From NCBI GenBank assembly GCA_041158445.1, contig JBEBBJ010000002.1, forward strand, positions 6,672 through 70,671: a DNA stretch of 64,000 bases, given 5' to 3'. The notes under the pieces were generated by a model. It was not told the origin of the DNA, did no database searches, and worked only from the letters and a program-made list of their open reading frames with translations. This document shows positions 6,001-57,614 of the stretch, piece after piece (within the stretch, counting starts at the first letter, position 1; every line of letters starts with the position of its first letter). Source of the stretch: Bacteroidota bacterium. Its GTDB lineage: Bacteria > Bacteroidota > Bacteroidia > Cytophagales > Spirosomataceae. The position numbers were made by a program, and so were the translations under genes.

Positions 6001-6915
6001 TCCGGAGACTTTGGCGTCAGCTGTGGTAATCGTTGTCGTAACAGAACCTGTGTTATTTCCGTTTTTTACTGACCCAGCAATTAACGTTCCCGGAACTCCT
6101 GCTTCTTTAGCATCAGGACAGCCATCACCATCTGAATCTAAATCAAACTGATTAGGTAACCCATCATTATCCGTATCGCAAAATGCGTCATTTAAAGAAA
6201 TTGTGCTAATGGCATCCAAGGCCATTCTTACACCCACGGGATCGTTTAAAGGATAAGAGCGTGGTTTGATCAACAAAGTCATACTCGTTGCAGTAGCCGT
6301 AAACGTAACTCCTTCGCGCGTCCAAATCGTAGTACTACCATTGAATGATGCCCCAGGACCAGTAGAAACATTGGTTTCACCTAAAACAGCGTTGTTCGCT
6401 TTATTAACAATTTGCCAAAATCCATTTTTGTACCATGCATTACCGTTTTCTTGTCCAACAGCAGCTTGCCAAAATTCAATTCGATAAGATGCACCAATGG
6501 TCAATTGGTTAATCGTTAAACTAGAAAATTCATCTATTGCTGCAGATTGTTGATAAACTGCTGATAGAAATGCACCACCATCAGGACTAACAGGTGTATT
6601 ACTCGGCACATAACCTCCATTAACAGTCATTAAATCGGGTGATGGACTTTCTACGGTAAGGCAACCGGTATTCCCTATATCCTGAACTAATCCAAAAGAT
6701 GGAGCCGAGCAGGAATTCGGTGGATTGACGCGTGGGCATTCTAACAAATCCGGTATACCGTCATTATCATCATCTAAGTCGATGGAGTTAATTATCCCAT
6801 CTCCATCAAAGTCATCAGCGGCGGCAGTGCCACCTACGGTTTGCGCAAAAGCAAACACAGAAACTAACTGAAAACAGAAAATGAGAACGAATCGAATCGG
6901 TAAACGTAATTTCAT
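1..6915 (-). CDS. Giant repetitive cell-surface protein, partial (N-terminal 2305 aa; C-terminus lies beyond window start)
   Basis: Hand translation of the minus strand from ATG at 6915-6913 gives MKLRLPIRFVLIFCFQLVSVFAFAQTVGGTAAADDFDGDGIINSIDLDDDNDGIPD, a signal peptide followed by calcium-binding repeats. The frame is still open at base 1 (..ATNTAANGAI). No complete minus ORF is listed here, consistent with one ORF running off the edge. It has recurrent thrombospondin-type-3-like DxDxDGxxD repeats (e.g. DSDTDGVVDIDDIDDD from 421-468). It also has three discoidin-like GSNDxxxW modules (~79-111, ~1751-1800, ~3691-3720). Confidence 0.85.
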   Translation of the reverse strand, partial: MKLRLPIRFVLIFCFQLVSVFAFAQTVGGTAAADDFDGDGIINSIDLDDDNDGIPDLLECPRVNPPNSCSAPSFGLVQDIGNTGCLTVESPSPDLMTVNGGYVPSNTPVSPDGGAFLSAVYQQSAAIDEFSSLTINQLTIGASYRIEFWQAAVGQENGNAWYKNGFWQIVNKANNAVLGETNVSTGPGASFNGSTTIWTREGVTFTATATSMTLLIKPRSYPLNDPVGVRMALDAISTISLNDAFCDTDNDGLPNQFDLDSDGDGCPDAKEAGVPGTLIAGSVKNGNNTGSVTTTITTADAKVSGTVGANGLLNSLETTAESGLINYTSYYNSYAKLASVNICTSLDADLDGVLDASDLDDDNDGILDTDEYCKSSILLPATNTTATVTQFKVPTGWTITNSSPDIATTASSIYNGWIGGCSGTAPAAPNGHTSWVNFYSNTQEAFKTTISGLTIGKTYILKAYYAKFAATPALGRITVKLGTTVIDQYTPTLGCGWETRFITFTATATSHDLQFQNTGIVSPMQNASVSISADPIYEICDTDNDGVPNHLDLDSDGDGCTDAKEASVSGTLRNGSVQNGANGGVVTSTINTTEAMAGLVNSYGANGLADALETSAESGIINYISSYSSYALSANLNTCTGIDTDGDGVSDLTDLDDDNDGILDITEGYGCAALTNDRQIFNDPVIKQFNLVVNGDFEQGDTGFNTTYVNVGSIGTCGSYIVAPFGWASSVGSLSEGNALQINADCSSPFTEFWSQTITVKPNTNYKLGFSIKHGNPATVSYSINGGALTGNFATTANWVSKQSIINTGSNTSLLIKLFETSGAPNSADFIADDIFLIEVKDVYCSGSMDTDNDGIFNHLDLDSDGDGCPDAKEAGVSGTLNSGAVKNGFNGAVTSTTTLNDAVAAGPYGSNGLANGVETSAESGSIRYFSKYTPFALAKNLSVCSDFDNDGIADPQDIDDDNDGTLDAVESPSCFYSSRDWLVGLRSDIQVSTDLVMSNYYQSPKELVDGDNGTTSASWAVSFVASTTPAKTVYAFKMPMAVELKTIYLGYINANTHFNANTVLRLEGSNDNSSWTILGNGYSAVTSVPGVIGVTNANTFTVTQNTGKYLFYRIYWVSGGGVGTTGYANEVYFETPDTYIPSVNPKINCNGDTDGDGFFNFQDLDSDADGCSDALEAGATTNQTSNFQFSFISPTNDANNNGLIDTKEGLTAGTINYNSYYNSYALTALINACLDSDQDGVNDVVDLDDDNDGILDRAECDMRPGKILFAGSNENFSTMRSSLFAEFDNNKAPGATIVQSNIIETATVPAGFYDGYDMVVFGGAAFNTIHANHWAALQTAIQNKTSKAFIIQSDNCCVVANQNGLMNVLNNVFGTKYDLSSSHPAVDQTFTLNNANSYSSVFTTNALDGNNYYPILNVDPSDILFYSPSVAGSALAGMKQIPGTSSKNQFVAWFVDGTITQGAPWYTANQNKIASAFYNAYSSTTNLTCDTDADGVANHLDLDSDGDGCADALESGITSSVLTTGTAVNLAGSTILSGTLTSTLSNAVVATVGSSAITFGNNGFANSLETSNESGVYNSTYNYPFAISKNYAACADFDQDSVTDIVDIDDDNDGVLDAIESPACFYTAAGMGLGSTDRTGILKITSDLTLNSVSRPLTNMIDNPLGTTILYTDFLNAQSAVNKNVVTVEFPRSVKLSELTFNYNSASTIFGASSSATLRGSNDGITWLDLATKSLNSTSETGNITKFTVSTNADKYKYYRVYSTAGTLVSAGQLKDISFAAPTYNASEYPTLACEVDDDGDGILNHQDLDSDNDGCNDASESIITLYNFTVPLTGNFGANGFLNTLETGTDSGIYSGTYSYSYAKLAYIKACLDTDGDLVPDIIDIDDDNDGVTDIDEGNFCVPPGTFYIGPTYFKSVTAQNFTVIGTTATPLSDMTDGNIAKSVTGNFNWTNQANPIVIDINLNFPVIADGFFIANDNGVVGDGIKNANIKLYNQANQLLAQQSINPLLNGATGAGNELFDKYAFSKTYVGVKRMVLEVAYSGITTGAAAPNYQIREIGMYRDDAYCTERDTDLDGTPDQLDSDSDNDGCNDAYESGAVSSNVTTVAGTYGVNGLSSLVETSDLVSAITNYPSSYYFLALQSARNKCIDSDTDGVVDIDDIDDDNDGILDLTESPSCFFKIADWNTKDKSNFALISSDLATTTNVFNSTLLTDNLATDPSSITFSTSTAQSQIGKAIYKVNFFKPVKLDAWYIQKVSSTQIFANTASSLMVQGSNDNTTWTNLLTSAIASPADATNTAANGAI

Positions 6916-7024
6916 AACGTGCTACGCCGATGCAGAAATAATACAATTCGGCAAACAAATAAAATGAAATCGGGTGTGGGGATTTGTCAAAAAAAGCGCA
7001 TTTGACAGAAATTGGACGAATGAA

Positions 7025-19913: not shown

Positions 19914-19983
19914 TCTTTATCAATTACCTGATAGCATCCGCAGAAACACGCCGCTACCTTTAGTAAAAAACAAAGATACAAGA

Positions 19984-20337
19984 ATGGCAAAACATTTGAC
20001 ACAAGGAAAATTAGGCGAGCAATTAAGTGTAGACTATTTGCTAAAAAACGCCTACACCATCGAGGCGAGAAACTACCGCTACAAAAGGGCAGAAGTAGAC
20101 ATCGTTGCAAAGAAAGGGGATCTTCTCATCTTTATTGAGGTGAAATCCCTTCGGAGAAATACACACGGACATCCAGAGCAAAAAATCACAAAAAATAAAA
20201 TACGGCTTTTAAGTAGAGCTGCTTGTGCTTACCAATACCAACATAAATGGCGCCAAGAGATTCGTTTTGACAGCATTTCGGTGAATTTTTATCCACAAGC
20301 CTTCAAAATAGAGCATTTCGAGGATGCTTTTTCGTAA
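19984..20337 (+). CDS. yraN: YraN-family (UPF0102) endonuclease-like protein
   Basis: 117 aa; GEQLSVDYLLKNAYTIEARNYRYKRAEVDIVAKKGDLLIFIEVK matches the YraN/UPF0102 pattern. Confidence 0.8.
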   Translation: MAKHLTQGKLGEQLSVDYLLKNAYTIEARNYRYKRAEVDIVAKKGDLLIFIEVKSLRRNTHGHPEQKITKNKIRLLSRAACAYQYQHKWRQEIRFDSISVNFYPQAFKIEHFEDAFS

Positions 20338-20360
20338 ATTCGCGCTTTAATAGCGCGCAC

Positions 20361-20771
20361 ATGATTCATTTTTGTACTGAAGACATAACATTCTCCTTAA
20401 AAGAGAAGTTAAAACACAAAGCCTGGTTAAACGAGGTGGCGAAACAGGAAGGGAAAAAGATCCTAGAATTGACTTACGTTTTTTGTTCAGACGAGTACTT
20501 ATTACAGATTAATCAAGAGTACTTGAATCACGATACGCTGACCGATATTGTTACGTTTGACAATTCAGAAGATCCGAAAAAAATCGAAGGCGACATCTTT
20601 ATCTCCATTGAAAGAGTGAGAGAGAATGGTAACAAATTGGGGACTTCGGAAACGGAGTTAGAACGTGTTATGGTGCACGGATTATTGCACCTGCTCGGTT
20701 ACAAAGACAAGAAGAAAGAGGATAAAGCGTTGATGACCGAGAAGGAAGATTTTTACATTAAACAGTACTAA
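20361..20771 (+). CDS. ybeY: rRNA maturation endoribonuclease YbeY
   Basis: 136 aa with the zinc motif HGLLHLLGYKD. Confidence 0.9.
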   Translation: MIHFCTEDITFSLKEKLKHKAWLNEVAKQEGKKILELTYVFCSDEYLLQINQEYLNHDTLTDIVTFDNSEDPKKIEGDIFISIERVRENGNKLGTSETELERVMVHGLLHLLGYKDKKKEDKALMTEKEDFYIKQY

Positions 20772-20789
20772 ATGTTTCACGTGAAACAT
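20772..20789. repeat. 18-bp perfect palindrome ATGTTTCACGTGAAACAT (copy 2, directly after the ybeY stop)
   Basis: Exact match to 19190-19207. Confidence 0.85.
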
Positions 20790-20797
20790 GAAATGAT

Positions 20798-22657
20798 ATG
20801 CTAAATTCATACGATGTAATTGTGGTGGGAGCGGGACACGCCGGATGTGAAGCAGCTTATGCGGCAGCACAAATGGGATCACGTGTTTTGTTAGTAACCA
20901 TGAATATGCAGACGATTGCCCAAATGTCCTGCAACCCAGCGATGGGTGGCGTGGCTAAAGGTCAAATCGTACGAGAGATTGACGCATTAGGTGGAATGTC
21001 TGGAATCATTTCAGACAAGACCATGATTCAATTCAGAATGCTAAACCGATCAAAAGGTCCGGCAATGTGGTCACCACGTTGTCAATCGGATCGTATGCGT
21101 TTTGCAGAGGAATGGAGAAACGCGCTGGAAGGAAATTTGAATGTAGATTTTTGGCAAGATTCTGTTCAACAATTAATCGTTGAAAAAGGCGAAGTAAAGG
21201 GGGTGATTACTCGTATGGGTATGACTTTTACAGCGAGAGCAGTGGTGCTTACAAATGGTACTTTCTTAAATGGATTGATCCACATAGGAGAGAAGAATTT
21301 TGGGGGAGGCCGCATGGCTGAACCGATGGCCATCGGCTTAACAGAACAGTTAATTCAACTGGGTTTCGAATCCGGTAGAATGAAGACGGGAACTCCGCCG
21401 CGTGTCGACGGAAGAAGCTTAGACTTCGCTGCGATGGAAGAACAAAAGGGGGATGAAAACCCAAGCTCTTTTTCATACTTAACTGAAACGCCATTAACAG
21501 AACAGCGCTCTTGCTGGATTACACACACAAACACAAAGGTGCACGAAGTCTTGAGAAAAGGTTTCGATCGTTCACCTATGTTCGCCGGAAGAATCAAGGG
21601 TTTAGGCCCACGCTATTGTCCCTCCGTAGAAGATAAAATCAACCGCTTTGCAGATAAAGATTCACACCAAATTTTCGTAGAACCGGAAGGATGGAGCACG
21701 GTGGAAATTTATGTCAATGGATTTTCGACATCGTTACCAGAGGACATCCAATTTGAGGCGATTCGCTTAATCCCTGGATTTGAAAAAGCAAAGATGTTCC
21801 GCCCGGGTTATGCCATCGAATACGATTATTTCCCGCCTACCCAATTAACATCGACGTTGGAAACAAAGCGAGTAAGCGGACTATTCTTCGCCGGCCAAAT
21901 CAACGGGACCACGGGCTACGAAGAGGCGGCATGCCAAGGCTTAATCGCCGGCATTAATGCCCACCAAAAAACACACGAATTAGATCCGTTTACCTTGTCA
22001 CGTTCGGACGCTTACATCGGCGTGTTGATCGACGATTTAATCAACAAGGGAACAGACGAACCATATCGCATGTTCACGTCGCGTGCCGAGTTCAGAACTT
22101 TGCTTAGACAAGACAATGCGGATGAACGCTTAACCGCAAAAGGATATCAATTAGGATTAGCGACGGAAAAACGTTGGAATAGATTTCAAGAGAAGAAGGC
22201 GCAAGTCGCGGCTTTGACAGAAGAAATCAAAAACACGAAAGTGAAACCAACAGAAGTGAACGATTGGTTAGAGCAGGAGGGAAGCGCTTCGTTGAAAGAG
22301 GGTGCGCCTATCGTGAATTTGCTGAGAAGATCCGATTTGTCTTTTGATCGAATTGCAACACACCCTAGCATCGAGCCTATCGTGAGAAACTATTCTCAAG
22401 AGGTGCGCGAGCAGGTGGAGATTTTAGTGAAATACGAAAGCTATATCGAAAAGGAAAGATTGATGGTGGACAAAATGCGCTCGATGGAAGACTTATCCAT
22501 TCCGGCGAATTTCGATTACGATAAAATCAAAACGCTGTCGACAGAATCACGCATAAAATTGAAATCGATTTTACCTCAGACCATCGGTCAGGCAAGTCGC
22601 ATTTCCGGAGTGTCGGCTTCTGACATTTCTATCTTACTTTTATTCATGGGACGCTAA
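20798..22657 (+). CDS. mnmG: tRNA uridine 5-carboxymethylaminomethyl modification enzyme MnmG (GidA)
   Basis: 619 aa; FAD-binding N-terminus [16 protein letters not shown], plus [11 protein letters not shown] and [16 protein letters not shown] signatures. Confidence 0.95.
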
Positions 22658-23541
22658 TGGAAAATATACAAAACTGCCCCGTTTGCGGATCACCTAATTC
22701 GACCTTAAAATTTAAGGCAAAAGATTATACTGTATCGAACGAGCAATTCCACATCGTTAGCTGTGATGCTTGTTCTTTGATCTACACAAACCCAAGACCT
22801 GCAGCGAACGAAGCTGGACCTTATTACCATGCGAGTGCTTACATTTCCCATAGTGATACGAATGAGGGAATTGTTAATAAGCTTTACCATGCGGTTCGCA
22901 AGTTCACACTTCAATCAAAATTGAATTGGATTGCGCCGGACAAAAAAGCCAATAAAGAATTACTAGATATCGGTTGCGGTAACGGGCATTTTCTAGCTGC
23001 CGCAAAAGAAAAAGGTTGGAATATCAATGGCTTGGAATTAGACCCAGAAACGGCGGCTAGAGCGGCTAAATTAACGGGGCTTAGCATCTCGCCATCTTTA
23101 GCAGAAATCGCTCCGGAAAAACAATTTCAAGTGATCACCTTGTGGCACGTTTTGGAACACGTCTACGAACTAGATGAGTATTTTAACTTCTTCCAAAGCC
23201 GACTGAATAAAGGCGGGAAATTATTGTTAGCCCTGCCTAACCCGGCGAGTTTCGATGCCGATTATTTCGAAGAATACTGGGCTGCCTACGATGTTCCACG
23301 ACACATCTACCATTTCACGCCAGCTACAATCACAGCGCTAGCGGCAAAGTATGGTTTTAAATTACAGAAGAGCCGCGGGCTTATTTTCGATAGCTTTTAC
23401 ATTTCGTTGTTAAGCAACGAATACAAAACAGGTAATAAACGCCTGCTTCATTCGTTTTTAATTGGATTCATTTCTAACCTACGAGCGATGCTGGGCAAGC
23501 CGAATTATTCAAGTAATCTATATACATTTGAACATGCGTAA
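22657..23541 (+). CDS. Class I SAM-dependent methyltransferase with N-terminal zinc ribbon
   Basis: CPVCGS..CDAC cysteine pairs, then LLDIGCGNGHFL (SAM motif I). Confidence 0.75.
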   Translation: MENIQNCPVCGSPNSTLKFKAKDYTVSNEQFHIVSCDACSLIYTNPRPAANEAGPYYHASAYISHSDTNEGIVNKLYHAVRKFTLQSKLNWIAPDKKANKELLDIGCGNGHFLAAAKEKGWNINGLELDPETAARAAKLTGLSISPSLAEIAPEKQFQVITLWHVLEHVYELDEYFNFFQSRLNKGGKLLLALPNPASFDADYFEEYWAAYDVPRHIYHFTPATITALAAKYGFKLQKSRGLIFDSFYISLLSNEYKTGNKRLLHSFLIGFISNLRAMLGKPNYSSNLYTFEHA

Positions 23542-25165
23542 TTACCTGAAATTCAGCCTTTTAATTATATTCCTAGGCCTAGGAATCAGCTTGGTTTTCT
23601 TACAGAGCTGCGCCCAAATGGCCGCACCTCCGGGTGGGAAAAAAGATACATTAGCACCAGTGGTTATCAACTCGATTCCGTTAAATAAGAGCAAGAATTT
23701 CAAAGGCAAAAAGATTGAATTAACCTTCAACGAATACGTGACCATCAAAGGCTTGAACCAAGAGTTGTTAATCACGCCTTCGATTGGAAACTACGAAACG
23801 CGCATTCGTCCTACGGGGCTAACTTTGGTATTAGACAGCGCATTAAAAGAAAATACGACCTATACCTTTAACTTCAGAAATGCGGTGGAGGATGTCGCAG
23901 AGAGAAATAAGGGGAGAAATATCAAACTGGTTTTCAGTACCTCGAACACCATCGATTCCTTGAAAATTCAAGGGAAAGTAAAACACCTGCTGACGAACAA
24001 AAAGGCCGATAATATCACGGTAGGCTTATATCCTTACAATGACAGCTTGCGTATCGATAAGGCGAAACCTTATTATTTCGTGAGAACTGATACGTCGGGA
24101 ACCTATACTTTGGAGAACTTGGCCGCCGGAAAATACTACATGGCGGCCTTCGACGACGCGAATAATAACTTGCTGTATAATTCAGCTAAAGAATCGGTAG
24201 ACTTTATCCCCGAGGCTTTCATCGACCTACAGAAAAATGAAACCCGGGATTTCAAAATCGCCCTGCAAAACCAGGATCCCTTGAAATTAATGAAAACGAC
24301 GACGACCGCTAAAACGGTTTTATATGAGTTTTCGCGGGGTATAAAAGCGGCTAACCTACGCTTTTCGTCTGAGGAAAAGCCGCTTTATCAAATTGAAAAT
24401 GACCGCAACCTACGGATTTACGTAGGTGGTTTAAATAAAGCGGATACCTTAGGTATTGATGCAGCACTTGAAGATTCCGTGGGCCGAAGCATCGATTTTA
24501 AACTAAAAGCTAAATTCAGAGAATTGGCTAAGAAGGAAAAGGCCACAAACGTTCCTTTAGGCTTCGATATCTTCCCAAAAGCGGGTTCTCTCATCGTTCC
24601 GACTGATTCCATCTTGATTATTTTCCCTAAACCCGTCTTACAATGGGTGTCTAAGAAAGTCCATATTTTAACGGAAAACGAGGATGATTTAACCTTCCCG
24701 GACGAGGCGTTTAGCTGGAATAAGTTCCAGAACATCCTAACTATTAAAAGCGCCTTCTTACCGAAGCGGGAGAAATTCACACTAGCGTTAGATAAAATCG
24801 CTTTCGTGGGCCCTGAGGCAGATTCTACGAATGAATACAAACAGCTCATCAAGCGATTGGATCCAGAGGAAACGGGTATAATCGAAGGGGGTATTCGCAA
24901 ACCTGGGCATTATATCTACCAATTATTAAAAGGAGAAAAGTTAGAAAAGGCCTACGAGCTTAAGTCTAATGGAACCTGTTCTTTCCAAAACGTGGAACCC
25001 GGCATCTATACACTGCGGGTAATCGTGGATGAAAATGAGAATGGCCAATGGGATATAGGCGATTTCAAGACTAAGAAAAAGCCAGAAGCGATCTATTACT
25101 TTGAAAATAAGATCAAATTAAAGGCGAATTTCCAATTAAGTGACTTGTGGATAAACACCCCTTAG
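23534..25165 (+). CDS. Ig-like domain lipoprotein
   Basis: Internal ATG 23534 gives MRNYLKFSLLIIFLGLGISLVFLQSCAQ (lipoprotein signal with Cys). An SbsA-type Ig-like N-terminal segment follows (DTLAPVVINSIP..). The last codons contain the first DnaA box. Confidence 0.6.
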   Translation: MRNYLKFSLLIIFLGLGISLVFLQSCAQMAAPPGGKKDTLAPVVINSIPLNKSKNFKGKKIELTFNEYVTIKGLNQELLITPSIGNYETRIRPTGLTLVLDSALKENTTYTFNFRNAVEDVAERNKGRNIKLVFSTSNTIDSLKIQGKVKHLLTNKKADNITVGLYPYNDSLRIDKAKPYYFVRTDTSGTYTLENLAAGKYYMAAFDDANNNLLYNSAKESVDFIPEAFIDLQKNETRDFKIALQNQDPLKLMKTTTTAKTVLYEFSRGIKAANLRFSSEEKPLYQIENDRNLRIYVGGLNKADTLGIDAALEDSVGRSIDFKLKAKFRELAKKEKATNVPLGFDIFPKAGSLIVPTDSILIIFPKPVLQWVSKKVHILTENEDDLTFPDEAFSWNKFQNILTIKSAFLPKREKFTLALDKIAFVGPEADSTNEYKQLIKRLDPEETGIIEGGIRKPGHYIYQLLKGEKLEKAYELKSNGTCSFQNVEPGIYTLRVIVDENENGQWDIGDFKTKKKPEAIYYFENKIKLKANFQLSDLWINTP

Positions 25166-25570
25166 CACTGTGGATAAGTGCCCTTTTTATCCACATTCTA
25201 TCCACAATTTGTGTGCATAACTGTGTATAACTTTTGAGCTCACCTCACCTATGTGGATAAGTCCGAGGTTATCCACAAGTTGTTAGACACTTATCCACAG
25301 TGGCATATTGGCTTTTGATTTCCCAAAACATAGTCATATCAAGTACTTACAAACACGATATTGACTTATCCACTTATCCACAGAGAACAACAAGAAGAAA
25401 CAAAAAAGAGATTTTAAAATTCTTTTCTTTTTTTAATTTATGTGTGTGGATAAGTTTTTAGGCTGAAAAAAGGATTTTGATGCTTTTTTGATATTTCATA
25501 CCTATTAATTTAGTAAAGCAGGTAATTAAATATCAAAACACCTTATTCTATGTGGATAACTTGTGGATAA
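25146..25570. other. Putative chromosomal replication origin (oriC): DnaA-box cluster plus AT-rich tract
   Basis: Ten perfect TTATCCACA/TGTGGATAA boxes at 25146, 25169, 25187, 25252, 25269, 25291, 25374, 25445, 25551 and 25562. One-mismatch boxes at 25198, 25212, 25222 and 25366. An AT-rich stretch lies at 25383-25550. Confidence 0.8.
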
Positions 25571-25641: not shown

Positions 25642-27414
25642 ATGGTTCATCAACAATTCACACGCGTATTTGATTTATTACAAGCTTATGCCAGCTTCAA
25701 GAAAGAAGACCTATTTAATCTAAAGAGAGATGGCGAATGGAAGAAGTATTCGGTAGACGAAACTTTGGAGACCATTCAAACATTGGCTTTGGGATTATTA
25801 GAGCTTAAAATTAAGCCAGGTGAAAAAGTAGCCATCATTTCAGGGAATCGTCCCGCTTGGAACTTTGTTGATTTTGCCGTTCAAATGATCGGTGGTGTGA
25901 CTGTTCCCATGTATCCTACAATTACGATTGAGGATTACGACTATATTTTTAAAGATGCTGAAGTGAAGTTTGTCTTCTGTGAAAATGAAGAACTGTACTT
26001 GAAAGTGAAGGCAGCATCGAAAGATAATAAGAAGATTAAGGGCATTTATACCTTTGATCCGGTGGCGGATGTGGAACGTTGGACAGCGGTGAAGGATTTA
26101 GGGGAAGGAAAAGATCCAGCTAAATTGAAGCCTTTGATGGATGCGGTGCAGCCGAGTGATTTACTGACTTTGATTTATACTTCGGGAACGACGGGTCGTC
26201 CGAAGGGCGTGATGTTAACGCACCACAATATCGTGAGTAATGTGAAATCCTTAGTGCGTGGGAATTTCTTTGATTTGTTGCCCTCAGATCGCGCTTTGAG
26301 TTTCTTGCCGTTGTGCCACATATATGAGCGCACGGACATTTATATGTACATGTACTACGGCGTTTCGGTCTATTATGCGGAGAGCATGGAGACAATCGCG
26401 GACAATATTAGAGAGGTGAAGCCGGCGATGTTTGCGACGGTGCCACGTTTATTGGAGAAAGTATATGATAAGATTTTGGCCAAAGGAAATGAACTTACCG
26501 GCATCAAGCGTGCTCTTTTCTTTGGGGCATTGGATTTTGGTTTGAAATACGATCCGATGGAGAAGCTGGGCTTAATCGATTCTTTAAAATTAGGCTTCTA
26601 CCGCAAAGTGATTTTCAGTAAATGGAAAGAAGCCTTAGGCGGAAATGTTCGTTTGATCGCTTCTGGTTCTGCTGCTTTACAACCTCGTCTTTCTCGTGTT
26701 TTCTGGGCGGCCGGCATTCCGGTTTCGGAAGGCTATGGCTTAACGGAAACCTCTCCGGTGATTTCGGTTTCACGTGTGAAGCCAGTTGATTTCAAAGTAG
26801 GTTGCGTGGGATCGCTAGTTGATTCGATTGAATTGAAGATTGCGGAGGACGGAGAAATTTGTGTGAAGGGAGATTCAGTGATGGTGGGTTATTATAAAAA
26901 TCCGGAGGCTACGGCTGAGGCGATTGATAAGGACGGTTGGTTCCACACCGGTGACATCGGGATGATGGTAGACGGCAAGTATTTGAAGATTACGGATCGC
27001 AAGAAAGAGATCTTCAAAACTTCAGGTGGTAAATACGTCGCACCGCAATTAGTGGAAAACAAGTTAAAAGAATCGGCCTTTATTGAGCAATGTATGGTCG
27101 TAGGTGAAGGCCAAAAATTCCCATCGGCGCTGATTATCCCCGAGTTTAATGCCTTGCAAGTTTGGGCAGATCAACAAGGAATTAAGGCCAAAGGTCCTGA
27201 GTCACTGATTACGAACAAGGAGATCATCGCTAAAATAGAAGAAGAAGTTTTAGATACGATGGGTTCTGTTGCGAAATACGAACAGGTGAAAAAATTCGTT
27301 CTATTGCCACGCTTATTCACGGTAGCGGATGGAGAAATCACCCCTACGTTGAAATTAAAACGCAAGGCAATTTACGCGAAACACGAGAAGGCCATTTTAG
27401 CCTTGTATGAATAA
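25642..27414 (+). CDS. Long-chain fatty acid-CoA ligase (AMP-dependent synthetase)
   Basis: YTSGTTGRPKGV AMP-binding motif, GYGLTETSP, and TGDIG..DRKKEIFKTSGGKYVAP. Start moved to ATG 25642 because the track start lies inside DnaA boxes. Confidence 0.85.
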   Translation: MVHQQFTRVFDLLQAYASFKKEDLFNLKRDGEWKKYSVDETLETIQTLALGLLELKIKPGEKVAIISGNRPAWNFVDFAVQMIGGVTVPMYPTITIEDYDYIFKDAEVKFVFCENEELYLKVKAASKDNKKIKGIYTFDPVADVERWTAVKDLGEGKDPAKLKPLMDAVQPSDLLTLIYTSGTTGRPKGVMLTHHNIVSNVKSLVRGNFFDLLPSDRALSFLPLCHIYERTDIYMYMYYGVSVYYAESMETIADNIREVKPAMFATVPRLLEKVYDKILAKGNELTGIKRALFFGALDFGLKYDPMEKLGLIDSLKLGFYRKVIFSKWKEALGGNVRLIASGSAALQPRLSRVFWAAGIPVSEGYGLTETSPVISVSRVKPVDFKVGCVGSLVDSIELKIAEDGEICVKGDSVMVGYYKNPEATAEAIDKDGWFHTGDIGMMVDGKYLKITDRKKEIFKTSGGKYVAPQLVENKLKESAFIEQCMVVGEGQKFPSALIIPEFNALQVWADQQGIKAKGPESLITNKEIIAKIEEEVLDTMGSVAKYEQVKKFVLLPRLFTVADGEITPTLKLKRKAIYAKHEKAILALYE

Positions 27415-27463
27415 ATTGCGTTAGGCCCGTTTTTTGCGTAATTTTGACTTCTTAATGAATCGT

Positions 27464-28543
27464 ATGTCGACAGGAAAAAAGGTAGCTCTCATTACGGGCG
27501 TAACAGGACAAGATGGCGCTTATTTAGCGGAATTTCTTTTAAATAAAGGATACATCGTACACGGAATCAAGCGCAGAAGCTCTTTGATTAACACGGATCG
27601 CATTGATCATTTGTACCAAGATCCGCACGTGGATTCCGCCTCTTTTATCTTGCACTATGGCGATTTAAGTGATTCTACGAACATCATTCGCATCATTCAA
27701 GAAGTACAACCGGACGAAATTTACAACCTTGGGGCCATGTCCCACGTGAAAGTTTCTTTCGACGAACCAGAATATACCGCGCAGGTAGACGGCATCGGAA
27801 CCTTGCGTATTTTAGAGGCCATTCGTTTGCTAGGTTTGGTGAAAAAGACCAAAGTGTATCAAGCGTCCACTTCGGAACTTTACGGCCTCGTACAGGAAGT
27901 TCCGCAATCAGAAACGACTCCTTTTTATCCCCGCTCACCTTACGCAGTTGCTAAATTATATGGCTACTGGATCACTGTGAATTACCGCGAAGCCTACGGG
28001 ATGTTTGCAGTAAACGGTATTTTATTTAACCACGAATCCCCGCTTCGCGGCGAGACTTTCGTGACACGTAAAATCACTCGTGGTGTAGCTCAGATTGCTT
28101 TAGGGCAAGAGAAAAAGATCCATTTAGGTAACCTGGACGCGAAACGCGACTGGGGCCACGCGAAAGATTATATCGAGGCGATGTGGTTGATTTTGCAACA
28201 AGATACGCCGGAAGATTATGTGATCGCGACCGGAATCACGACGACGGTGCGCGAATTTATCCGCATGTCGTTTGCTGAATTAGGTATCGAAGTGGCGTTC
28301 TCAGGCGAAGGTGTGAACGAAAAAGGAACCGTGGTTTCTTGCTCGAATCCAGCCTACCAAGTGCCGGTGGGACAAGAAGTCATCGCCATCGACCCGCGCT
28401 ATTTCCGCCCGACGGAGGTAGAATTATTAATAGGTGATCCTACGAAGGCCAAAGAAAAACTAGGCTGGACCCTTAAATACGATTTAGCCGCGCTAGTAAA
28501 AGACATGGTTCAGGCGGACGTAAAATTATTCTCGACGAAATAA
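27464..28543 (+). CDS. gmd: GDP-mannose 4,6-dehydratase
   Basis: [35 protein letters not shown].., [10 protein letters not shown] (YxxxK), [10 protein letters not shown]. Confidence 0.9.
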
Positions 28544-28544
28544 G

Positions 28545-29798
28545 ATGAGTACACGGATCGCCATTATAGGCTTAGGATATGTGGGTTTTCCGCTGGCGGT
28601 GGAGTTTGGCAAGAAAATTCCTACGCTCGGCTTTGACATCGACACGAGTCGCATAGCTGAATTAAACACCGGTTTTGATCGCACGCACGAAGTAAAGCCG
28701 GAGCAATTAAAAGCATCGGTTTCTTTGAGCTTTTCATCGAATGCGGCTGATTTAGCGGCCTGCAATACTTTTATTGTAACAGTCCCCACTCCCATCGATC
28801 ACTTCAAAAAGCCGGACTTAAGCCCGCTTTTAAAGGCTTCTGAAATGATCGGAAAAGCCTTGAAAAAAGGTGATTTAGTCATTTACGAATCGACGGTTTA
28901 TCCGGGTTGTACGGAGGAGGATTGTGTTCCTGTTTTGGAGAAATTCTCTGGACTAAAATTCAACGAAGACTTCTTCTGTGGCTACTCGCCAGAACGCATT
29001 AATCCAGGTGACAAGGTAAACACCTTGACCAAAATCAAGAAAGTTACCTCCGGCTCCACACCCGAAATCGCCGAAAAAGTCGACCAATTATACCGCTCCA
29101 TCATCACCGCCGGTACGCACAAAGCGCCTTCGATGAAAGTGGCGGAAGCCAGCAAAGCCATCGAAAATGCCCAACGCGACGTCAATATCTCCTTCGTAAA
29201 CGAGCTAGCCTTGATCTTCGATCGCATGGGCATCGACACGACGGAAGTATTAGAAGCGGCCGGAACGAAGTGGAACTTCCTGAATTTCAAACCCGGCTTA
29301 GTGGGCGGCCATTGCATCGGCGTGGACCCCTATTACTTATTGCACAAGTCCGAAAGCTTAGGCTATTACCCACAGGTGATCCTTTCTGGTCGCCGCGTGA
29401 ATGATAACATGGGTATTTTCGTCGCCAATAAATTAGTCAAATTGTTGATTAATAAAGGCCAAAAAATAGGCGGCGCCAAAACCCTCATGCTCGGCATCAC
29501 CTTCAAAGAAAACTGTCCCGACATCCGCAACTCTCGCGTTGTTGATATCTATAAAGAGCTCGTTGATTTTGGGATGGACGTAGACGTCTATGACCCTTGG
29601 GCAAACGCCGCCGAAGTGAAACACGAACACGGCATCGACTTAGTCACAAAACTAGCTGATCAATACCAGGCGATTGTTTTGACCGTAGCCCACAACGAAT
29701 TTCTAGACCTCCCCTTCGCATCCTTGCGCGCCGAAAACGGGGTCATCTTCGACATCAAATCCATCTTATCCAAAGACTTGGCTGACGCCCGATTATAA
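28545..29798 (+). CDS. Nucleotide-sugar dehydrogenase (TviB/WbpO-like UDP-N-acetyl-hexosamine 6-dehydrogenase family)
   Basis: 417 aa; N-terminal IAIIGLGYVGFPLA Rossmann motif and the catalytic-Cys region GLVGGHCIGVDPYY. Confidence 0.8.
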   Translation: MSTRIAIIGLGYVGFPLAVEFGKKIPTLGFDIDTSRIAELNTGFDRTHEVKPEQLKASVSLSFSSNAADLAACNTFIVTVPTPIDHFKKPDLSPLLKASEMIGKALKKGDLVIYESTVYPGCTEEDCVPVLEKFSGLKFNEDFFCGYSPERINPGDKVNTLTKIKKVTSGSTPEIAEKVDQLYRSIITAGTHKAPSMKVAEASKAIENAQRDVNISFVNELALIFDRMGIDTTEVLEAAGTKWNFLNFKPGLVGGHCIGVDPYYLLHKSESLGYYPQVILSGRRVNDNMGIFVANKLVKLLINKGQKIGGAKTLMLGITFKENCPDIRNSRVVDIYKELVDFGMDVDVYDPWANAAEVKHEHGIDLVTKLADQYQAIVLTVAHNEFLDLPFASLRAENGVIFDIKSILSKDLADARL

Positions 29799-29800
29799 GC

Positions 29801-30283
29801 ATGGCTTGGTACGCGATTTACACGAAATCCAGAATGGAGAAGAAAGTCTCCTTGCGCCTTCAGGAGCTAGGCATCGAAGCCTACTGCCCTACTACGAAGC
29901 GCAAGAAGCAATGGTCTGACCGCAAAAAATGGGTTGAAGAAGTTCTCTTCCGCTCCTACGTTTTCGTTAACATCGACCTTGAAAAGCAAAGTGGCCTAGT
30001 CCGCCGAACCTTCGGAGTCGTTAACTTCGTCTACTGGCTCCACAAACCCGCTGTCATCCAAGATGACGAAATCCTGGCCATCAAACAATTCTTATCCGAC
30101 CACCTCGAAGTCGAAACCATCGGCACCACCGCAAAAGTGGGCGACTACATCACCATCGAATCTGGCCCACTAACCGGCCAAACCGCCAAGATCGTCGGGC
30201 TGAAGAATAAGCACGAGGTGAGGCTTAAGATTGAGAGCCTTGGGTTTGAGCTTGTTGCGGCCCTGCGGGACGCAGGAGAGTAG
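29801..30283 (+). CDS. UpxY-family (NusG-like) transcription antiterminator
   Basis: 160 aa; MAWYAIYTKSRMEKKV.. NGN-like N-terminus and a KOW-like C-terminus (GDYITIESGPLTGQTAKIVG). Confidence 0.8.
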   Translation: MAWYAIYTKSRMEKKVSLRLQELGIEAYCPTTKRKKQWSDRKKWVEEVLFRSYVFVNIDLEKQSGLVRRTFGVVNFVYWLHKPAVIQDDEILAIKQFLSDHLEVETIGTTAKVGDYITIESGPLTGQTAKIVGLKNKHEVRLKIESLGFELVAALRDAGE

Positions 30284-38114: not shown

Positions 38115-41100
38115 ATGTCTATTAAATCTCGTTTGCAAAGATTTGCCTCTTTAAGTGTAGTATTATTCTCATTGATTTTGCCTGTTGTCAAAACACAAGG
38201 TCAAACTGCTCAATTTCAACTAACGGAAAGTGATGGATTAAATCCCTACTTGTATGTCATTGAAAAGTCTTCAGGCAGGGTATTTATGAATAATACCCTT
38301 TCTGATAATAGTATTCATGGACGGATTTACTTACCCAAAGGTGATTATCACACTTCAGATGCGACGGTTACCTATCTAGGAGAGGCAGCTAATGATGCGG
38401 TTATTCAAGTATACTCCTATAAGACTGATAGGCTCTATCCTAATATTAATGCTGCTTTATTCATTACGCAGTCTGGTAAGGCATATTTATATCAGTTGGA
38501 TTTAGGTGGTTATGATGTATGGAATCCACAATGGAAAGGAAACACACCTCGTTTAGTGAGTGTGGGATCTAATGAAGTAGTTATTGGTGGTCGCTTAATG
38601 AATGAAAGCATCACTCAAACTAATTATGCAATGAATTTATACCTGATTACACAATCAGGAAAGCTTTTTAAGTCTGCTTGGACAATGGGAACCGCTGGAG
38701 GATATAATACGAGTACAGAAGTTACAGGTGTAAGCGGAATAACAAGAATTAGCGGTAATGATAAAGACAAATTGTTTTTATTGACAAGTAGTAATGCGCT
38801 TTACTTGAGAAAAGATTTTGGAAGGTCTGGTGGGGGATTAGGGAATTTTTTAGTGAACATAAGCAGTCTACCCGCGGGTAGAACTATTTCAAAAATTGTA
38901 TCTAATACGAATGGGGATTTTGCTCTATTAGATAACGGTACCGTTTTCAGCATGGGAATTGAAATGGCTAATGGGACTGTTACAGCCAGTTTCGTTGCTT
39001 TACCATCTGGGCCAACCTATAATAGCGGGTCTGGTAATTTAGGGGAGGAATCGAATAATAAAATCACAAAAATTGCAGCTGCAGGTGATAAAATTGCTTT
39101 CATTACTGAGAAAGGCCAAGTATACCTTGCAGGAAGTGATTTAGTTGCGATGCCTGTGGATCATTTAGCAAATGTAACACAATCATTAAGTACAGATAGA
39201 GATAAGCATTGGTTATTGTCCAAACAAAGTGGACAATCATTATTTGGCGGATCTGCAAGTCCTACATATGATTTCTACGGAGATAATAGTGAGTCCGCTG
39301 CCACTGGATTTGCATTCTATGATAATGGACGTTTTGCTATTCAAGATAATGCGAATAATATTTTCATATATGGAGGTAGGCGCTATAATACAAATACGAC
39401 GAATTGGTCTGCAAGTGCTTCTGATTATACAAATGTTGATGTAAAAATTGGAGCAAACTATGTGGGATTACCCATGGTGGATTATGCTACAAATGGAATA
39501 TTAAATAGCTATGTTTCTGATGTAACCAAGCCTGTTTATACACTTACGCCTGTAAATTTCAAGAGTGGAGAAAGACATAATTCTAGAACTTTCCAGTTTA
39601 AATTAGAAGTGTCTGAAATGCCCCTTGTTCCACCTACTAATTTTATTAATACGGTAATAAATACAGGAACGGGTGCAGCAACAGTTAGCAATGTCAAATT
39701 CATTTCGGATTTTACACTGGCTAAAAAAGCGGTAGACCAAAAATACATTTATACTTTTGATGTAGTTATTTCAGGAACATCTACCATTTATGATGTTGAT
39801 GTTAATCTGCCTTTAGGAGTCATTAAAGATCGAAGGGGAAATATTGCTGACGGAACTTCTACCTTTAAATTATTATTAGATCTAAGCCCTACTACGGTAA
39901 CCTTACTAAACAGGGTTGTGACTAAGGATGTTGCCAAAGGTAAATGGTATGTGGACATTCAAGCCACACCAAACCGGATATATACTCCTTCCAGCCCTGA
40001 TAAAAAATTATTACCTAGTTCTTTCCAATTGGAACAAAACTATTATGGAAGTGCTCCAGCCAGCTTTAATGAAATTGCTGAAATTGGAAACGGTATTTAT
40101 CGCTTATATTTTGCCGAAGATTTTTCAACTTCAACCTATAGAAACGAAGATCTCGGATGGCAGTTCCATGCCGGTAATATTGTTGATTTTAACCAACAAA
40201 GCATCGAATTATACGGAGGTCTTTCTTATAGATTAGGCTTTTTAACGGGTAAAGAGGGTCCCAATTTTATCACTTTTATAGATGCAAGAAAACCAACTCC
40301 AGTAATTTCAGGAGTAAGTAATACGAATAATCCTTCTAATGGATCTAAAGGATTTAAAATACATATTCCACATGAATATGTTTCTTTGACAGAAGGAGAA
40401 GGGGATAATACCAAAATTGGAAAAGATGATATTGTCATAACCGTAAACGGCACAACGGTAACTAATACAACAAGTTATATCAGTAATTTTAGAAAGACAG
40501 AATTCTACAACGCAAGAGGTACAAACTATTTTGACATAGGTAGATGGTGGCCGAGTGAACAAACTTCAATTTTTGCCTATCAAGATTGGGAATTTACATT
40601 AACTCCACCCGCAGGTGTAGAGGGTACTATAACCGTATCAGTGGGGGCTAATACATTTGCAGACGCACGCGGAAATACCAATGTGGTGTCTAATGTGTAT
40701 TCTTGGACGCATGACATTACTCCTCCCACCATTTCAAACATAGTTGTTAGTGCTGATAATAAATATGCAGAAGTCACTTTTAGCGAGGATGTTAATTTTG
40801 TAAACAATGCATCAGGAGTATTGACTCCAGCAGATTTTGCTTTATCCATGGCAACAAATTCGGGTAATGCGTTTTTAGCGTCATCGGATTTAATACCTAT
40901 TAATCCAGATTTTTCAACTTCTAATGCTACTTATGTAGGGGTTAATCCGGTAACCAAAATAGCGAGTAATAAAATTAAAGTATTCTTTAAAAGCTCTTAT
41001 ACATCGGATGCTGGACCAGCTGAAATTCAAGATGAAGGACCATCTGATAGAAATTTCGACGTCCGTTCTGTAAAAAAGGCAAAAGGTGTCGAACAGTTAA

Positions 41101-44100
41101 CAGTAGGTGTTCTTATCGGTAAAATAAGTGACAAAGCAGGCAATCTAAATTCAGGAACAATTTCTTCTACGGTTGGTGCAGGAGCTACGTTAAAGGATTT
41201 GTATGCGCCAAGTTTGTCATTAGTGGTAAAGGGAAGTGATGCAGTAGCTATTAATGCAGGAGCCACAGTTCAAAAAGCGCCTTATGTATTTACTTATACT
41301 GCTGATGAAGCTTTGAGTGCATCTACTTCAATTACATTAGCGAATTTAAGTACGTATTTTAATGTTACTGGTACTTCAATTGCCTCTGTTACTTATGATG
41401 CAATAAATAAAAAAATTACATTAACTACTTCAAGTTCTATTACCGATGGGACGACTATTACTATTGCCGTAAAGACTAAAACCTTGTCCGATGTGGCAGG
41501 GAATTTAATGCGAAAAAACAATAGTTTTAGTTTTATACATAATACTGCAGCCATATCATTTGGTGGTTATATATACTCTACCATCGGAGGCAAAAAAGTC
41601 GGTGTTAGTACTATTACGGGTAATGGAACATACAATAAAAATTATTTCCAAATAAATACTTTTTGGTATGGTATAAATGGTGCTTTCAATGCTACTAATG
41701 GATATAATAAGTTACTGAATTGGGGAGGGTCCGCCCAAAATGGTACCATTGCGAATAGTAATTTTTCAATTAAAGTGTATCAAGCTGATGGAGTAACAGA
41801 AATTCCTGGTGCTGCTACATTGATTAATAGTGCGAATAATAGCTACACTAAAACAGATGAATTTGGGAATACTCAATACACTATTCAGGCTGATTTTAGT
41901 TTAAATTTTACACCTAATGGAACGGAGAAAATCACCTTTGGTCCTGTAAATGATAACACCTTTAAATTATCGGGTAGTAATAACCCGTGGCTAGCTAGTC
42001 AATCTTCTACTTTGACCGAATTGCCTGATCTAAGGAATGATGTTTCAATAACAGTTAAGGATGGAAATGGAGTAGATTTACCGGCCATGTCAACATTAAT
42101 TTCTGGAGGAACATTGTTTTCAAATACGACTCCAACTTCCATTACGAATGTTATCACTACTGATGTGATTAAAGTAAAAGTGAGTATTCCAACTTCATGG
42201 AATTCTATTGCAACTTATTTAACAAGTGGTTCACCAGGTTCTTTAACCACATTTGCAACACTTACTGATTATGTTAGAAGTACTTTATTTATTAATAAAT
42301 TGCCAACTTCAGGTAGTACATTGTCAACTTTATCTAATGGTTCGGATTATGTTTTGGAAAACTTTGTTACCTCAAATAACGGATTGACATGTGAATTTGA
42401 TTTGCGATTTATTAATAAAATAGATGCCACTAATTCAAAGTTTGCCTATTTTTCTTTAGGACAATTTTTTGGAATACCACCAGGGGGATATCAACAATTA
42501 TTTTCTGCCTATAATACAGCTGGAGTCAATACGGCAATAAATTCTACAAACTCTCCTCAACTGTATTACTATCTTGAAAATGGAATAACCCCATATATGT
42601 ATGCAGGACCTGGAGTGTATAGGAGTTATGGAGTAATTTATGCCTTTAGTGAGGTCCAGGGTTATGGTTCAATTAAAGTTACATCTACCGTTCAAGCTAG
42701 TACTAAAAAAGTATTAGGAGTTTACGATGTGGCTAATGAGAAATCACTCCCAGCAAATACATTCATTTGGTCTGTAAAAGATCCAGATAAAAATAAAGTA
42801 GCAGACACAAGGTTGCCAGGAGGTACTAGTAATGGATTTCCTGTATTTTACGGTGATCAATTTAATACGATTGATTTCTCAAACAATACAATGCCTGCCT
42901 CTGGATCTTATTTGATGAATTGGGCAAACTTTAAATCATCTCCCTCCTCATCCACATATAGTAATCACGATAATTGGGGATTCGGACAAGATTTACGAGA
43001 TGGTTGGAATAACGTAATAGTTTCAGCTGCCAGTAGAAAGGTAAATATCTATGCATACGAAAAAAGTGATGGAACAAGCCGTTCAATAGTTAATTATACA
43101 TCAGGGCCCACTGGAACATGGACTATACAAAAGCAGTTTAAAGCAACAAACAGTGTATTAGGATCTAATGACCTTTGGTTTATTACTGGTGCACCTACAA
43201 TTGCTTCAGCAGCTCTTGATGATATGGTTGCAAATCCATCGGATTATTATTATAGCACGGTTACAAACATGGATTTTGGCAGTACTCAAACAGCTACTGC
43301 ATCTAAATCCTATAAGTCAAAAATGGTATTAACTAGCGATGTGCAAAACGTAGCAGGTGATGCAGGTGATTTTACCGTTAATGATTTGACTTTTACTTCT
43401 ACCAATTCGGCTGTTACTATTTCCAATAAATCATTGACTAGAGTAGATGCCAAAAATTATACTTTATCTTTTGATGTATCAGGTTATGGAACTTCTACCA
43501 TTAAAATAAACATACCAAATAATAGTTATAAAAATACCTTAGGCGCATGGAATAAAGAAGACTTTACCGAGGCCTCAGCTATGGAATTTGTGTATCAAGG
43601 TCCATCCACTCCTGTAGTGACCCCGCGTGCTTTACCTACCATTTCCATGGAACTAAAAAGTGCTTTGGGTACGGTATTAAACGGTAAAACTAATTTGAAG
43701 GAAAATTTAAATTTAGAAGTCACCTGGGCAACAGCGGGTTCAACTTACACAAACACTTCTGATATTTATAATACCTATAATGATCCATTATTCTTAAAGA
43801 ATAATAATTTCTTAGTGACGGATAATACAGATTCTGATGGAGATGGTACGCCGGATTATTCAGCACAAGTTCTTTCTTCTTCTTTGATGTACCGTTCGGG
43901 AGATACGCGTTATCCGATAGGAGTTAAACTAGGTTTGAAAATTAATCTCGATCCTACACCTTATACATCTGGTTCAGGTAATAATACCACGGCAAATCAA
44001 TTCAAAGATGCACAATCTGTAAATATACCACGGAATATTTCGTTTACTATTCCGGCCAATACCTTTGCATTAGTACCTACCGACTATGTGGTTAGTACTA

Positions 44101-51974: not shown

Positions 51975-52864
51975 GAAAGATAGTATTAGCAGCGTTTCTA
52001 TTTTTAGGGGGACACGTCGTTTCAGCCCAAATCGAATCGATGTACTCGATGTACCAAATCAACCCCATCGTCTCTTCGCCAGCCTATGCAGGCCTAGTGG
52101 CGAATGGCGCGAAAGGGGAATTCGTCGCTATTAATCGCCAGCAATGGATAGGCGTGCAGGGTTCGCCACGCACCTCGTTGATGACGGGAAATTACCAGTT
52201 GAAACCGAAGATCGGGATAGGCGCCATTTTAGCGACCGATCAAGCGGGTCCTTTGCGCATTACAAGCGTGTCTGGTGATTTAGCGTACTCGGTTCGTTTG
52301 AATGAGGACTGGAAGATGAATGGCGGACTACGTCTTTCATTAGCGTCCGTTTACATCGATTATGCGGGACTTACGGCGATCGATATCAACGATCCCTACA
52401 TCCAAGTCAATAAGTCGACGGGGTTAAAAGCAAACACCGGTTGGGGCCTACATTTCGCGCATCGCGGGGGTAGCTTCTTATCAGTTTCGCAACCTCGGGT
52501 GCTGAGCTATGATTTTGGCAATTTATCCGGTGCGTTTAAGGACGTTTCGTATTTCTATTTGCAAGCAGGAACGGCTATTCAGGCGGCTCCGGGGATTCGT
52601 GTGAGCCCATCGGTGATGGCGCGTTTAGCTTCATCGACGCCATTTAGCTGGGATGCGAACGTGATCGTGAATCTACAAGAAAAAGTGGATGTGGGTCTGA
52701 TTTACCGCGATAAAATCAGTTATGGAGCGCGTGTAGGTGTACCTTTTTCTAAGAAAGTGTATGTGGCCTACACGGGAGAATTTCCGCTGGCGACCTTGAA
52801 TGCGTTTGGGGTGCAGACGCACGAATTAGCGCTTAAAATTTCCTTATTCGAGAAACAAAAATGA
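51971..52864 (+). CDS. PorP/SprF-family T9SS membrane protein
   Basis: 297 aa; signal peptide then ..SMYSMYQINPIVSSPAYAG.. (PorP/SprF N-terminal signature). ATGA overlap with the adhesin stop. Confidence 0.85.
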   Translation: MRKIVLAAFLFLGGHVVSAQIESMYSMYQINPIVSSPAYAGLVANGAKGEFVAINRQQWIGVQGSPRTSLMTGNYQLKPKIGIGAILATDQAGPLRITSVSGDLAYSVRLNEDWKMNGGLRLSLASVYIDYAGLTAIDINDPYIQVNKSTGLKANTGWGLHFAHRGGSFLSVSQPRVLSYDFGNLSGAFKDVSYFYLQAGTAIQAAPGIRVSPSVMARLASSTPFSWDANVIVNLQEKVDVGLIYRDKISYGARVGVPFSKKVYVAYTGEFPLATLNAFGVQTHELALKISLFEKQK

Positions 52865-53931: not shown

Positions 53932-54185
53932 TGAAATCTATTCGCTTAAAATATTGTAGCGCCCAAGGCTGCACATTTAAGTTTGTGAACAAAGCAAATC
54001 TGAAAGAACACGTTATTTCAGAGAAGGATGGAGTTGTTTTTATACGCTTGTTTTTAAAGACAGGAGAAGAGATTTCGCTATCTGGCGTATCTGAGACGGT
54101 AGAAATAATTAACCTGCGCTGGTCGCGGTTTGAGACTTCGGATGAGATCTTTTTTGATCTCGCAGAGTTCGAAGTGATAAATTAA
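53931..54185 (+). CDS. Small hypothetical protein (84 aa), last gene of the adhesin operon
   Basis: ATG 53931 overlaps the OmpA stop (TAATG). A terminator follows at 54205-54236. I recognise no family. Confidence 0.45.
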   Translation: MKSIRLKYCSAQGCTFKFVNKANLKEHVISEKDGVVFIRLFLKTGEEISLSGVSETVEIINLRWSRFETSDEIFFDLAEFEVIN

Positions 54186-54204
54186 TTTAGAACACGGAGT
54201 TTTG

Positions 54205-54236
54205 AAACCCTTTGGCTATTGGCTGAAGGGTTTTTT
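54205..54236 (+). terminator. Rho-independent terminator ending the adhesin operon
   Basis: aaaccctt (54205-12) pairs with aagggttt (54226-33), followed by TTT. Confidence 0.65.
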
Positions 54237-56844: not shown

Positions 56845-56851
56845 TATCGCT

Positions 56852-57550: not shown

Positions 57551-57614
57551 GTATATTTTTTTCATCCGTTTACGAGTCAAAGAATCGTGATTCGTAGACA
57601 TAAATAATAACAAA

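Follow-up and report, generated by a model that had tools for sequence, protein, structure and literature searches.

Chromosomal replication origins (oriC) situated far from dnaA are common in Bacteroidetes according to DoriC (PMC4755523), and the predicted oriC of Prevotella intermedia OMA14 is a 476-bp multi-box locus at a skew transition, likewise far from dnaA (PMC4755523). In the order Cytophagales, autonomously replicating oriC plasmids bore out experimentally the oriC that DoriC had predicted for Cytophaga hutchinsonii (PMC3531139), and the DoriC-derived table compiled for the basal unwinding system (BUS) lists this oriC at ~4.058 Mb and the oriCs of Cytophagales at 2.0–6.7 Mb of their records. 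In the 64-kb window analyzed here (the whole stretch of DNA, to whose numbering all positions refer), a cluster of DnaA boxes at 25146–25570 very probably constitutes the DnaA-dependent chromosomal oriC of an Aquirufa genome, as judged from its sequence and from related loci. The cluster occupies the gap between the gene of a Big_5 surface protein on the left (stop codon at 25165) and the gene of an AMP-binding acyl-CoA ligase on the right, both on the + strand. The host of the window was assigned to Aquirufa (Cytophagales, Bacteroidota) because this ligase is 89–94% identical to its homologues in A. esocilacus, A. antheringensis, and related metagenome-assembled genomes (MAGs). The Aquirufa cluster resembles the P. 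intermedia oriC in being a multi-box locus of a few hundred bp at a skew transition and far from dnaA, whereas P. intermedia belongs to another order and has different, unreported flanking genes; its oriC is a prediction, as is the Aquirufa locus. C. hutchinsonii belongs to the same order and also has a DnaA-box origin. The original prediction had described the cluster as a probable oriC located away from dnaA. The reading as an oriC is supported by the box cluster, unique in the window, the conservation of its boxes amid drifting spacers, the AT-rich core, and a skew and strand switch 0–6 kb away. The position relative to dnaA also stands, but it is not unusual, since the statement on Bacteroidetes in PMC4755523 makes an oriC away from dnaA the expected state for the phylum.

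Ten perfect copies of the 9-mer TTATCCACA or its complement TGTGGATAA are present within 25146–25570 in both orientations, and an exact recount gave the same ten perfect and four one-mismatch boxes within 425 bp that had been reported originally. Six of the perfect boxes, at 25146 (−), 25169 (−), 25187 (+), 25252 (−), 25269 (+), and 25291 (+), and three one-mismatch boxes, at 25198 (+), 25212 (−), and 25222 (−), make up the left array (25146–25299), a putative DnaA assembly region. The remaining perfect boxes are at 25374, 25445, 25551, and 25562 and the fourth one-mismatch box is at 25366, such that the AT-rich segment 25383–25444 has 11 boxes on its left and 3 on its right. That this density exceeds chance, as had been claimed, was borne out by 100 dinucleotide-preserving shuffles, which contained on average 0.59 and at most 3 perfect boxes per 64 kb. 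When weighted box scores were calculated in 500-bp windows the cluster reached a score of 49, compared with 9 for the next best (mean 2.6, S.D. 3.8), and no second box cluster was found elsewhere in the 64-kb window. The box units have only the 9-mer and a weak A-(C/G) 5′ flank in common, with unrelated spacers between them. Outside the cluster the 64 kb contain a single perfect box, at 20289–20297, which is located inside yraN, near the turn of the cumulative GC skew, and is kept in the closest species (L008 and L009) and not in more distant ones.

A footprint alignment of nine Aquirufa lineages, with ligases 73–94% identical to that of the window, shows box positions to be 82% conserved compared with 51% for non-box sequence, the lowest spacers reaching 21%. 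Boxes 25169, 25252, 25269, and 25291 are 93–99% conserved over the 8 other lineages, and the spacers between them 21–47%. In every Aquirufa locus examined the cluster directly follows the Big_5 gene. A relaxed pattern of the conserved core described below matches once in each of the Aquirufa genome loci and also in Siphonobacter, where the boxes are degenerate, always at the syntenic position; a further match in L019 looks spurious. With the exact core pattern, 30 contigs were found in public metagenomes, 26 of them with the same gene context. Three others (L095, L110, and L115) are short and carry 5–6 perfect boxes and no identifiable flanking gene, and one (L099), with 1 box only, looks spurious. 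More distant Cytophagales MAGs have, after the Big_5 gene, a box, ~62 nt of AT-rich DNA, and then a convergent box. Both the excess of boxes over chance and the conservation of the boxes at a syntenic position in relatives are features of an oriC. Some MAG records with an Aquirufa-type locus (those of L007, L013, and L053) are labeled Spirosoma fluviale, and one locus with a Bacteroidota-like ligase is labeled Gammaproteobacteria, which are probably mislabels or binning errors.

The conserved core (25366–25453) is comprised, in order, of the overlapping boxes TTATCCACTTATCCACA, a 28-nt purine tract, TTTTAAAA, a T-rich tract, and the convergent box TGTGGATAA. The overlapping tandem boxes TTATCCACT/TTATCCACA (25366–25382, + strand), separated by 8 bp from start to start, point into the AT-rich core and are 96% conserved; every Aquirufa locus carries the pair, which Siphonobacter L025 has in the degenerate form TTTTCCACCTTTCCACC. 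The adjoining purine tract GAGAACAACAAGAAGAAACAAAAAAGAG (25383–25410, + strand) consists of 8 consecutive A-centered, DnaA-trio-like triplets, and its complement is a pyrimidine-only strand with three 5′-TTGT-3′ motifs. The tract is 80% conserved compared with 51% for non-box sequence, and the middle base of the triplets, which is A in 85% of cells, is the best conserved of the three positions. Together with the T-rich half of the core, ATTTTAAAATTCTTTTCTTTTTTTAATTTATGTG (25411–25444, + strand), the purine tract makes up the proposed DNA unwinding element, which is closed on the right by the perfect convergent box at 25445–25453 (− strand, 96% conserved). This segment of 62 bp (25383–25444) is 79% A+T, quasi-palindromic (repeat I3), and less stable than any other duplex of the intergenic region, with a 60-bp ΔG of −65.5 compared with a window mean of −78.6. 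Placed between inward-pointing boxes, as an unwinding element beside an inward-pointing box would be, the 62-bp core is probably the unwinding element of the origin. The original prediction had proposed the entire ~170-bp tract 25383–25550 for this role; the AT-richness of the tract was confirmed (76% A+T compared with 59% for the window), but the likely element is the conserved 62-bp core and not the tract as a whole. To the right of the core lie a variable AT-rich spacer (25454–25550, 51% conserved), which is the decayed 5′ remnant of a gene for a TPR protein, and a perfect box pair (25551–25570, − strand, 11 bp start to start, 88–96% conserved) pointing left into the AT-rich region.

The history of this TPR gene bears on which parts of the locus are under selection. 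In L013, L016–L021, L023, L039, and L042 the core is followed by a gene for a TPR protein of 504–606 amino acids with a signal-peptide-like N terminus, situated between the core and the ligase gene (e.g. L013:8419–9933, L016:8391–9905, and L039:8070–9890). The ATG of this gene overlaps the core-flanking box (ATGTGGAAA/ATGTGGATAA), such that ATGTGGA(T/A)A in L013 and L016–L021 encodes Met-Trp-Lys/Ile, the start of the TPR lipoprotein, and the right box pair is located in TPR codons ~90–97 (C-G-x-x-V-D-N/K-L) of the species bearing the gene. In the lineage of the window the TPR gene has been lost and both box sites have been kept, now as perfect boxes, with ~100 bp of decayed sequence between them. 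At the variable spacer the TPR-bearing species show an insertion together with coding sequence (alignment A2). A stretch of 55 bp within the spacer (25496–25550, columns 377–431 of alignment A1) occurs as two unrelated haplotypes among near-identical strains, one in the window, L002, and L003 and the other in L001, L004, and L005, with nearly identical flanks, which suggests recombinational replacement within the origin. The retention of the boxes after loss of the TPR gene, with a variable tract between them, indicates that the boxes themselves are under selection, and the hypervariability of 25454–25550 indicates that this variable part is not the sequence-specific unwinding element.

The skew evidence is local, comprising the 64-kb window and 22-kb loci of relatives. 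The GC skew of the + strand is negative over 1–20 kb and positive over 20–64 kb, independent of gene strand, and the skew at third codon positions (GC3 skew) lies between −0.13 and −0.38 in almost every gene on the left, whichever its strand, and is mostly positive to the right. When a step was added to a coding-strand model, the residual sum of squares fell from 1.71 to 1.21; the breakpoint fitted best at 20 kb, and 25–25.5 kb gave a second optimum. To the left 77% of the genes are on the minus strand, and to the right 90% are on the plus strand. The polarity of skew and gene strand is that of an origin and not of a terminus. In 10 of 10 Aquirufa loci the skew is negative on the left flank and positive on the right, the skew and strand switch lying 0–6 kb from the cluster, and in four other species (L016–L019) the minimum of cumulative G−C is at most 400 bp from it. 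On the positive-skew arm to the right of the cluster, 27434–30283 holds sugar-nucleotide genes (gmd and a TviB-like dehydrogenase) and an UpxY antiterminator, and three of the genes there have a negative GC3 skew (−0.08 to −0.36) despite their location; a recently acquired or inverted polysaccharide locus may account for this.

The genes to the left of the cluster, identified with Pfam and NCBIfam, form the run yraN-ybeY-mnmG-methyltransferase-Big_5 (19984–25165, + strand), with Big_5 as the last gene, and lipB diverges leftward at 19913, leaving a lipB/yraN spacer of 70 bp (19914–19983). As had been noted from the sequence, all five genes are transcribed toward the cluster and mnmG (20798–22657) lies ~2.5 kb upstream of it, the exact distance being 2.49 kb. 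Proteins identical to the mnmG product are encoded on freshwater metagenome contigs and in one NCBI MAG. The reported absence of dnaA and dnaN from the window also holds, as neither was found by Pfam and NCBIfam among its open reading frames (ORFs) of at least 150 amino acids, and a regular expression for the DnaA signature gave no match. In 86 loci, Walker-A and signature expressions found no dnaA at up to 10 kb from the ligase homologue, which says little on the whereabouts of dnaA. The orientation of the five left-hand genes, head-on to a leftward fork, had been raised as a caveat to an origin. The orientation is as described, but it carries no weight against an origin, as the same arrangement is kept across the genus and, beyond it, across the order and is thus a stable feature. 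Directly past the Big_5 stop codon there is a terminator-like hairpin with a T-run (25165–25181, + strand) with the perfect box 25169 in its loop, by which transcription may be stopped before entering the origin; the evidence for it is weak, with 1 terminator-like site found compared with 0.8 expected in shuffles. A scan for sigma-70 promoters, not designed for promoters of Bacteroidota, gave results not above chance.

The linkage of oriC to mnmG is classical from E. coli, where the order is mnmG (gidA)-oriC-mioC. The E. coli oriC is likewise apart from dnaA and linked to mnmG, and its box beside the unwinding element likewise points into the element, with the main array on the far side of that box. 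The R1-DUE (DNA unwinding element) geometry of E. coli is matched at the tandem boxes of Aquirufa, where TGTGGATAA is preceded on its 5′ side by a T-rich strand with TTGT motifs; TTGT is one of the TTGT/TTATT-type motifs of the E. coli single-stranded DUE (ssDUE) (PMC10797057). In contrast to E. coli, where mnmG is transcribed away from the origin, Aquirufa mnmG is 2.5 kb off and transcribed toward it, and the Aquirufa cluster is much richer in perfect boxes, has boxes to either side of the core, and shows no GATC clustering. Boxes on both sides of an AT-rich unwinding region are found in Thermoanaerobacter tengcongensis, reported to have the only experimentally validated bilateral oriC (PMC1888806; PMC13643167). 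Aquirufa has boxes on both sides of its proposed unwinding element (11 left and 3 right), but T. tengcongensis is unrelated in phylum and sequence, the bilateral layout of Aquirufa is read from the sequence only, and its right-hand boxes are partly a relic of the lost gene.

In the BUS of the B. subtilis type (PMC8287927, PMC6669920), as in Aquirufa, tandem boxes abut A-centered triplets followed by AT-rich DNA, and the central A is best conserved. Tandem boxes beside the unwinding region are found in Aquirufa at 25366/25374 (+) and at 25562/25551 (−). According to the BUS rule at least 3 DnaA-trios (3′-NAN-5′) are located within 16 bp of a box, on the strand complementary to 5′-TTATCCACA-3′ (Pelliciari 2021), and the orientation applied here, 3′-AATAGGTGT-spacer-(NAN)n-5′, was taken from the supplementary table of that study. 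Compared with the B. subtilis type, the Aquirufa triplets are on the opposite strand and in the opposite polarity relative to the adjacent tandem boxes, and these boxes overlap by 1 nt instead of being spaced by 0–3 bp. The right pair has a nominal 4 trios at box 25551, with a spacer of 11, in the hypervariable segment. For the conserved run of 8 triplets the polarity is canonical only with respect to box 25445, at a spacer of 38 nt where the rule allows at most 16. Literature searches on DnaA-trios in Bacteroidetes, on DoriC and Bacteroidetes, and on Flavobacteria origins gave nothing useful.

These differences could represent a real mechanistic variant, a Cytophagales unwinding module with non-canonical trio-like placement and a bilateral layout kept from Aquirufa to Siphonobacter, a possibility that we consider rather doubtful. 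In the proposed module the overlapping boxes, in an 8-bp register, would abut 7–8 A-centered triplets with a strand and polarity opposite to the canonical BUS, and the triplet polarity would be canonical only for the convergent box across the 34-nt T-rich spacer. If such a module exists, the DnaA filament might be nucleated from the far box, or the complex on the near boxes might capture the pyrimidine-only (TTGT) strand, or two opposed filaments might open the quasi-palindromic element, making it a natural bilateral origin. A box at the edge of the element that doubles as the TPR start codon in relatives would in that case couple occupancy of the initiation complex to TPR expression.

Box clusters outside origins are known in E. 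coli at datA, DARS1, and DARS2. The E. coli datA and DARS loci have 3–5 boxes, no unwinding element, and a position away from the skew switch; like the Aquirufa cluster they are away from dnaA. A DnaA-titrating, -inactivating, or -reactivating locus of this kind, or a DnaA-controlled promoter region, binding DnaA without firing replication, is in our view an unlikely explanation of 25146–25570. The right box pair is located 70–90 bp upstream of the ligase ATG, and the box at the core edge overlaps the TPR start codon in relatives, such that DnaA binding could also affect transcription. However, ten perfect and four near-perfect boxes are far above the content of datA or DARS, a conserved AT-rich core with a purine tract lies between convergent boxes, and the cluster coincides with the origin-type switch of skew and strand in ten Aquirufa loci, whereas a datA-like cluster would be without an unwinding element and off the skew switch. 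The boxes also stay on the mnmG–Big_5 side whether the next gene is that of the TPR protein or the ligase, and were retained, now perfect, after loss of the TPR gene, indicating that they are not tied to one promoter. Least of all do we expect a chance or repeat-driven build-up of 9-mers, such as a mobile or satellite repeat with no role for DnaA, a reading of negligible probability: only the repetitive look of the region speaks for it, whereas no shuffle reached 4 boxes, the units are alike only in the 9-mer and its weak flank with unrelated spacers, and throughout the genus the site occurs as a single copy in synteny.

Several observations weigh against placing the origin at the cluster. The skew minimum of the window falls at lipB/yraN, 4.75 kb left of the cluster, and that of the nearest species 4.7–5.9 kb to the left. 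The gene-strand switch in the lineage of the window is also at lipB/yraN (~19.9 kb), and the GC3 skew is close to zero in the five genes in between, which a leftward fork would meet head-on. In duplex stability the core is one of the ~10 weakest 60-bp stretches of the window but not the weakest of all, because the window holds low-GC islands. At the tandem boxes 25366/25374 the canonical DnaA-trio rule does not hold, the complementary strand having no A for 28 nt. The distant Cytophagales MAGs L022, L039, and L042 have few boxes at the syntenic site and no skew switch in 20-kb loci. A second box cluster may also exist beyond the 64-kb window, for example beside dnaA. The displaced skew minimum, shifted by 4.7–5.9 kb in the window lineage, would fit a cluster that is one of two origins or one part of a bipartite one, acting as an auxiliary to true unwinding elsewhere, e.g. 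closer to the 19.9-kb strand switch or next to dnaA, and H. pylori and B. subtilis offer known cases of bipartite origins separated on the kilobase scale (PMC3479198; PMC13643167). This arrangement appears slightly less probable still than a datA-like locus. The 70-bp lipB/yraN spacer (19914–19983), considered as an alternative initiation site, was rejected as box-free and not AT-rich, the 64 kb contain no other box cluster, the skew minimum is on the cluster itself in L016–L019, and the cluster has its own conserved AT-rich core.

If the cluster at 25146–25570 is the oriC, as we consider very probable, DnaA-ATP would occupy the high-affinity left array (25146–25299) and the tandem boxes (25366–25382), as well as the convergent box 25445 and the right pair (25551–25570), and would thereby be placed to either side of the core. 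The 62-bp core (25383–25444) would then melt, and one strand of the purine/pyrimidine tract (25383–25410) would be held as single-stranded DNA by the AAA+ oligomer of DnaA. The captured strand could be either the E. coli-like T-rich (TTGT) strand or the trio-like A-centered strand. Capture of single-stranded DNA would permit loading of the helicase, followed by bidirectional replication.

Locating the origin of a widespread freshwater genus helps to orient and circularize MAGs and to obtain growth rates from metagenome coverage (peak-to-trough ratio), and a well-footprinted Bacteroidota origin is a possible test case for the generality of the BUS and ssDUE-recruitment models. It also helps in building oriC shuttle plasmids, as for C. 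hutchinsonii, whose oriC plasmids were reportedly described by Xu et al. in 2012. General knowledge of origins is unchanged by the finding, and one gene start is corrected. The mechanically defined ligase ORF begins with a GTG at 25552, within box 25551–25559, and the original prediction had moved the start to 25642. This is supported by the relatives and by gene callers: the maximal ligase ORF is 590 amino acids in L007–L009 (A. esocilacus, A. antheringensis, and L007), homologues align from residues 1–8 of the 590-amino acid form, and gene callers give 590 amino acids on 3 of 5 close contigs (L001, L003, and L004). The acyl-CoA (fatty-acid) ligase gene, identified by NCBIfam and the Pfam AMP-binding family, thus most likely spans 25642–27414 (+ strand, 590 amino acids).

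Elsewhere in the window, an rRNA operon suspected at 0.5–7 kb from missing ORFs was not confirmed, as Rfam and ARAGORN gave only a tRNA-Asn at 35824. The region 0.5–7 kb belongs to a minus-strand gene of more than 2307 amino acids, a second giant gene (1–6921) that has an F5/8 type C domain and runs off the left end of the window. The other giant gene lies within 38115–53931, where the gene for a 4619-amino acid cadherin/Ig-repeat protein bearing a CHU_C type IX secretion signal precedes PorP/SprF and OmpA-family genes. A low-GC island at 54000–61600 (34–35% compared with 41%) contains a serine resolvase (54648–55322, − strand), an N6/N4 DNA methylase (57615–59138), a tyrosine integrase (60300–61532), and several ORFs with no Pfam match, and is probably an integrated mobile element.

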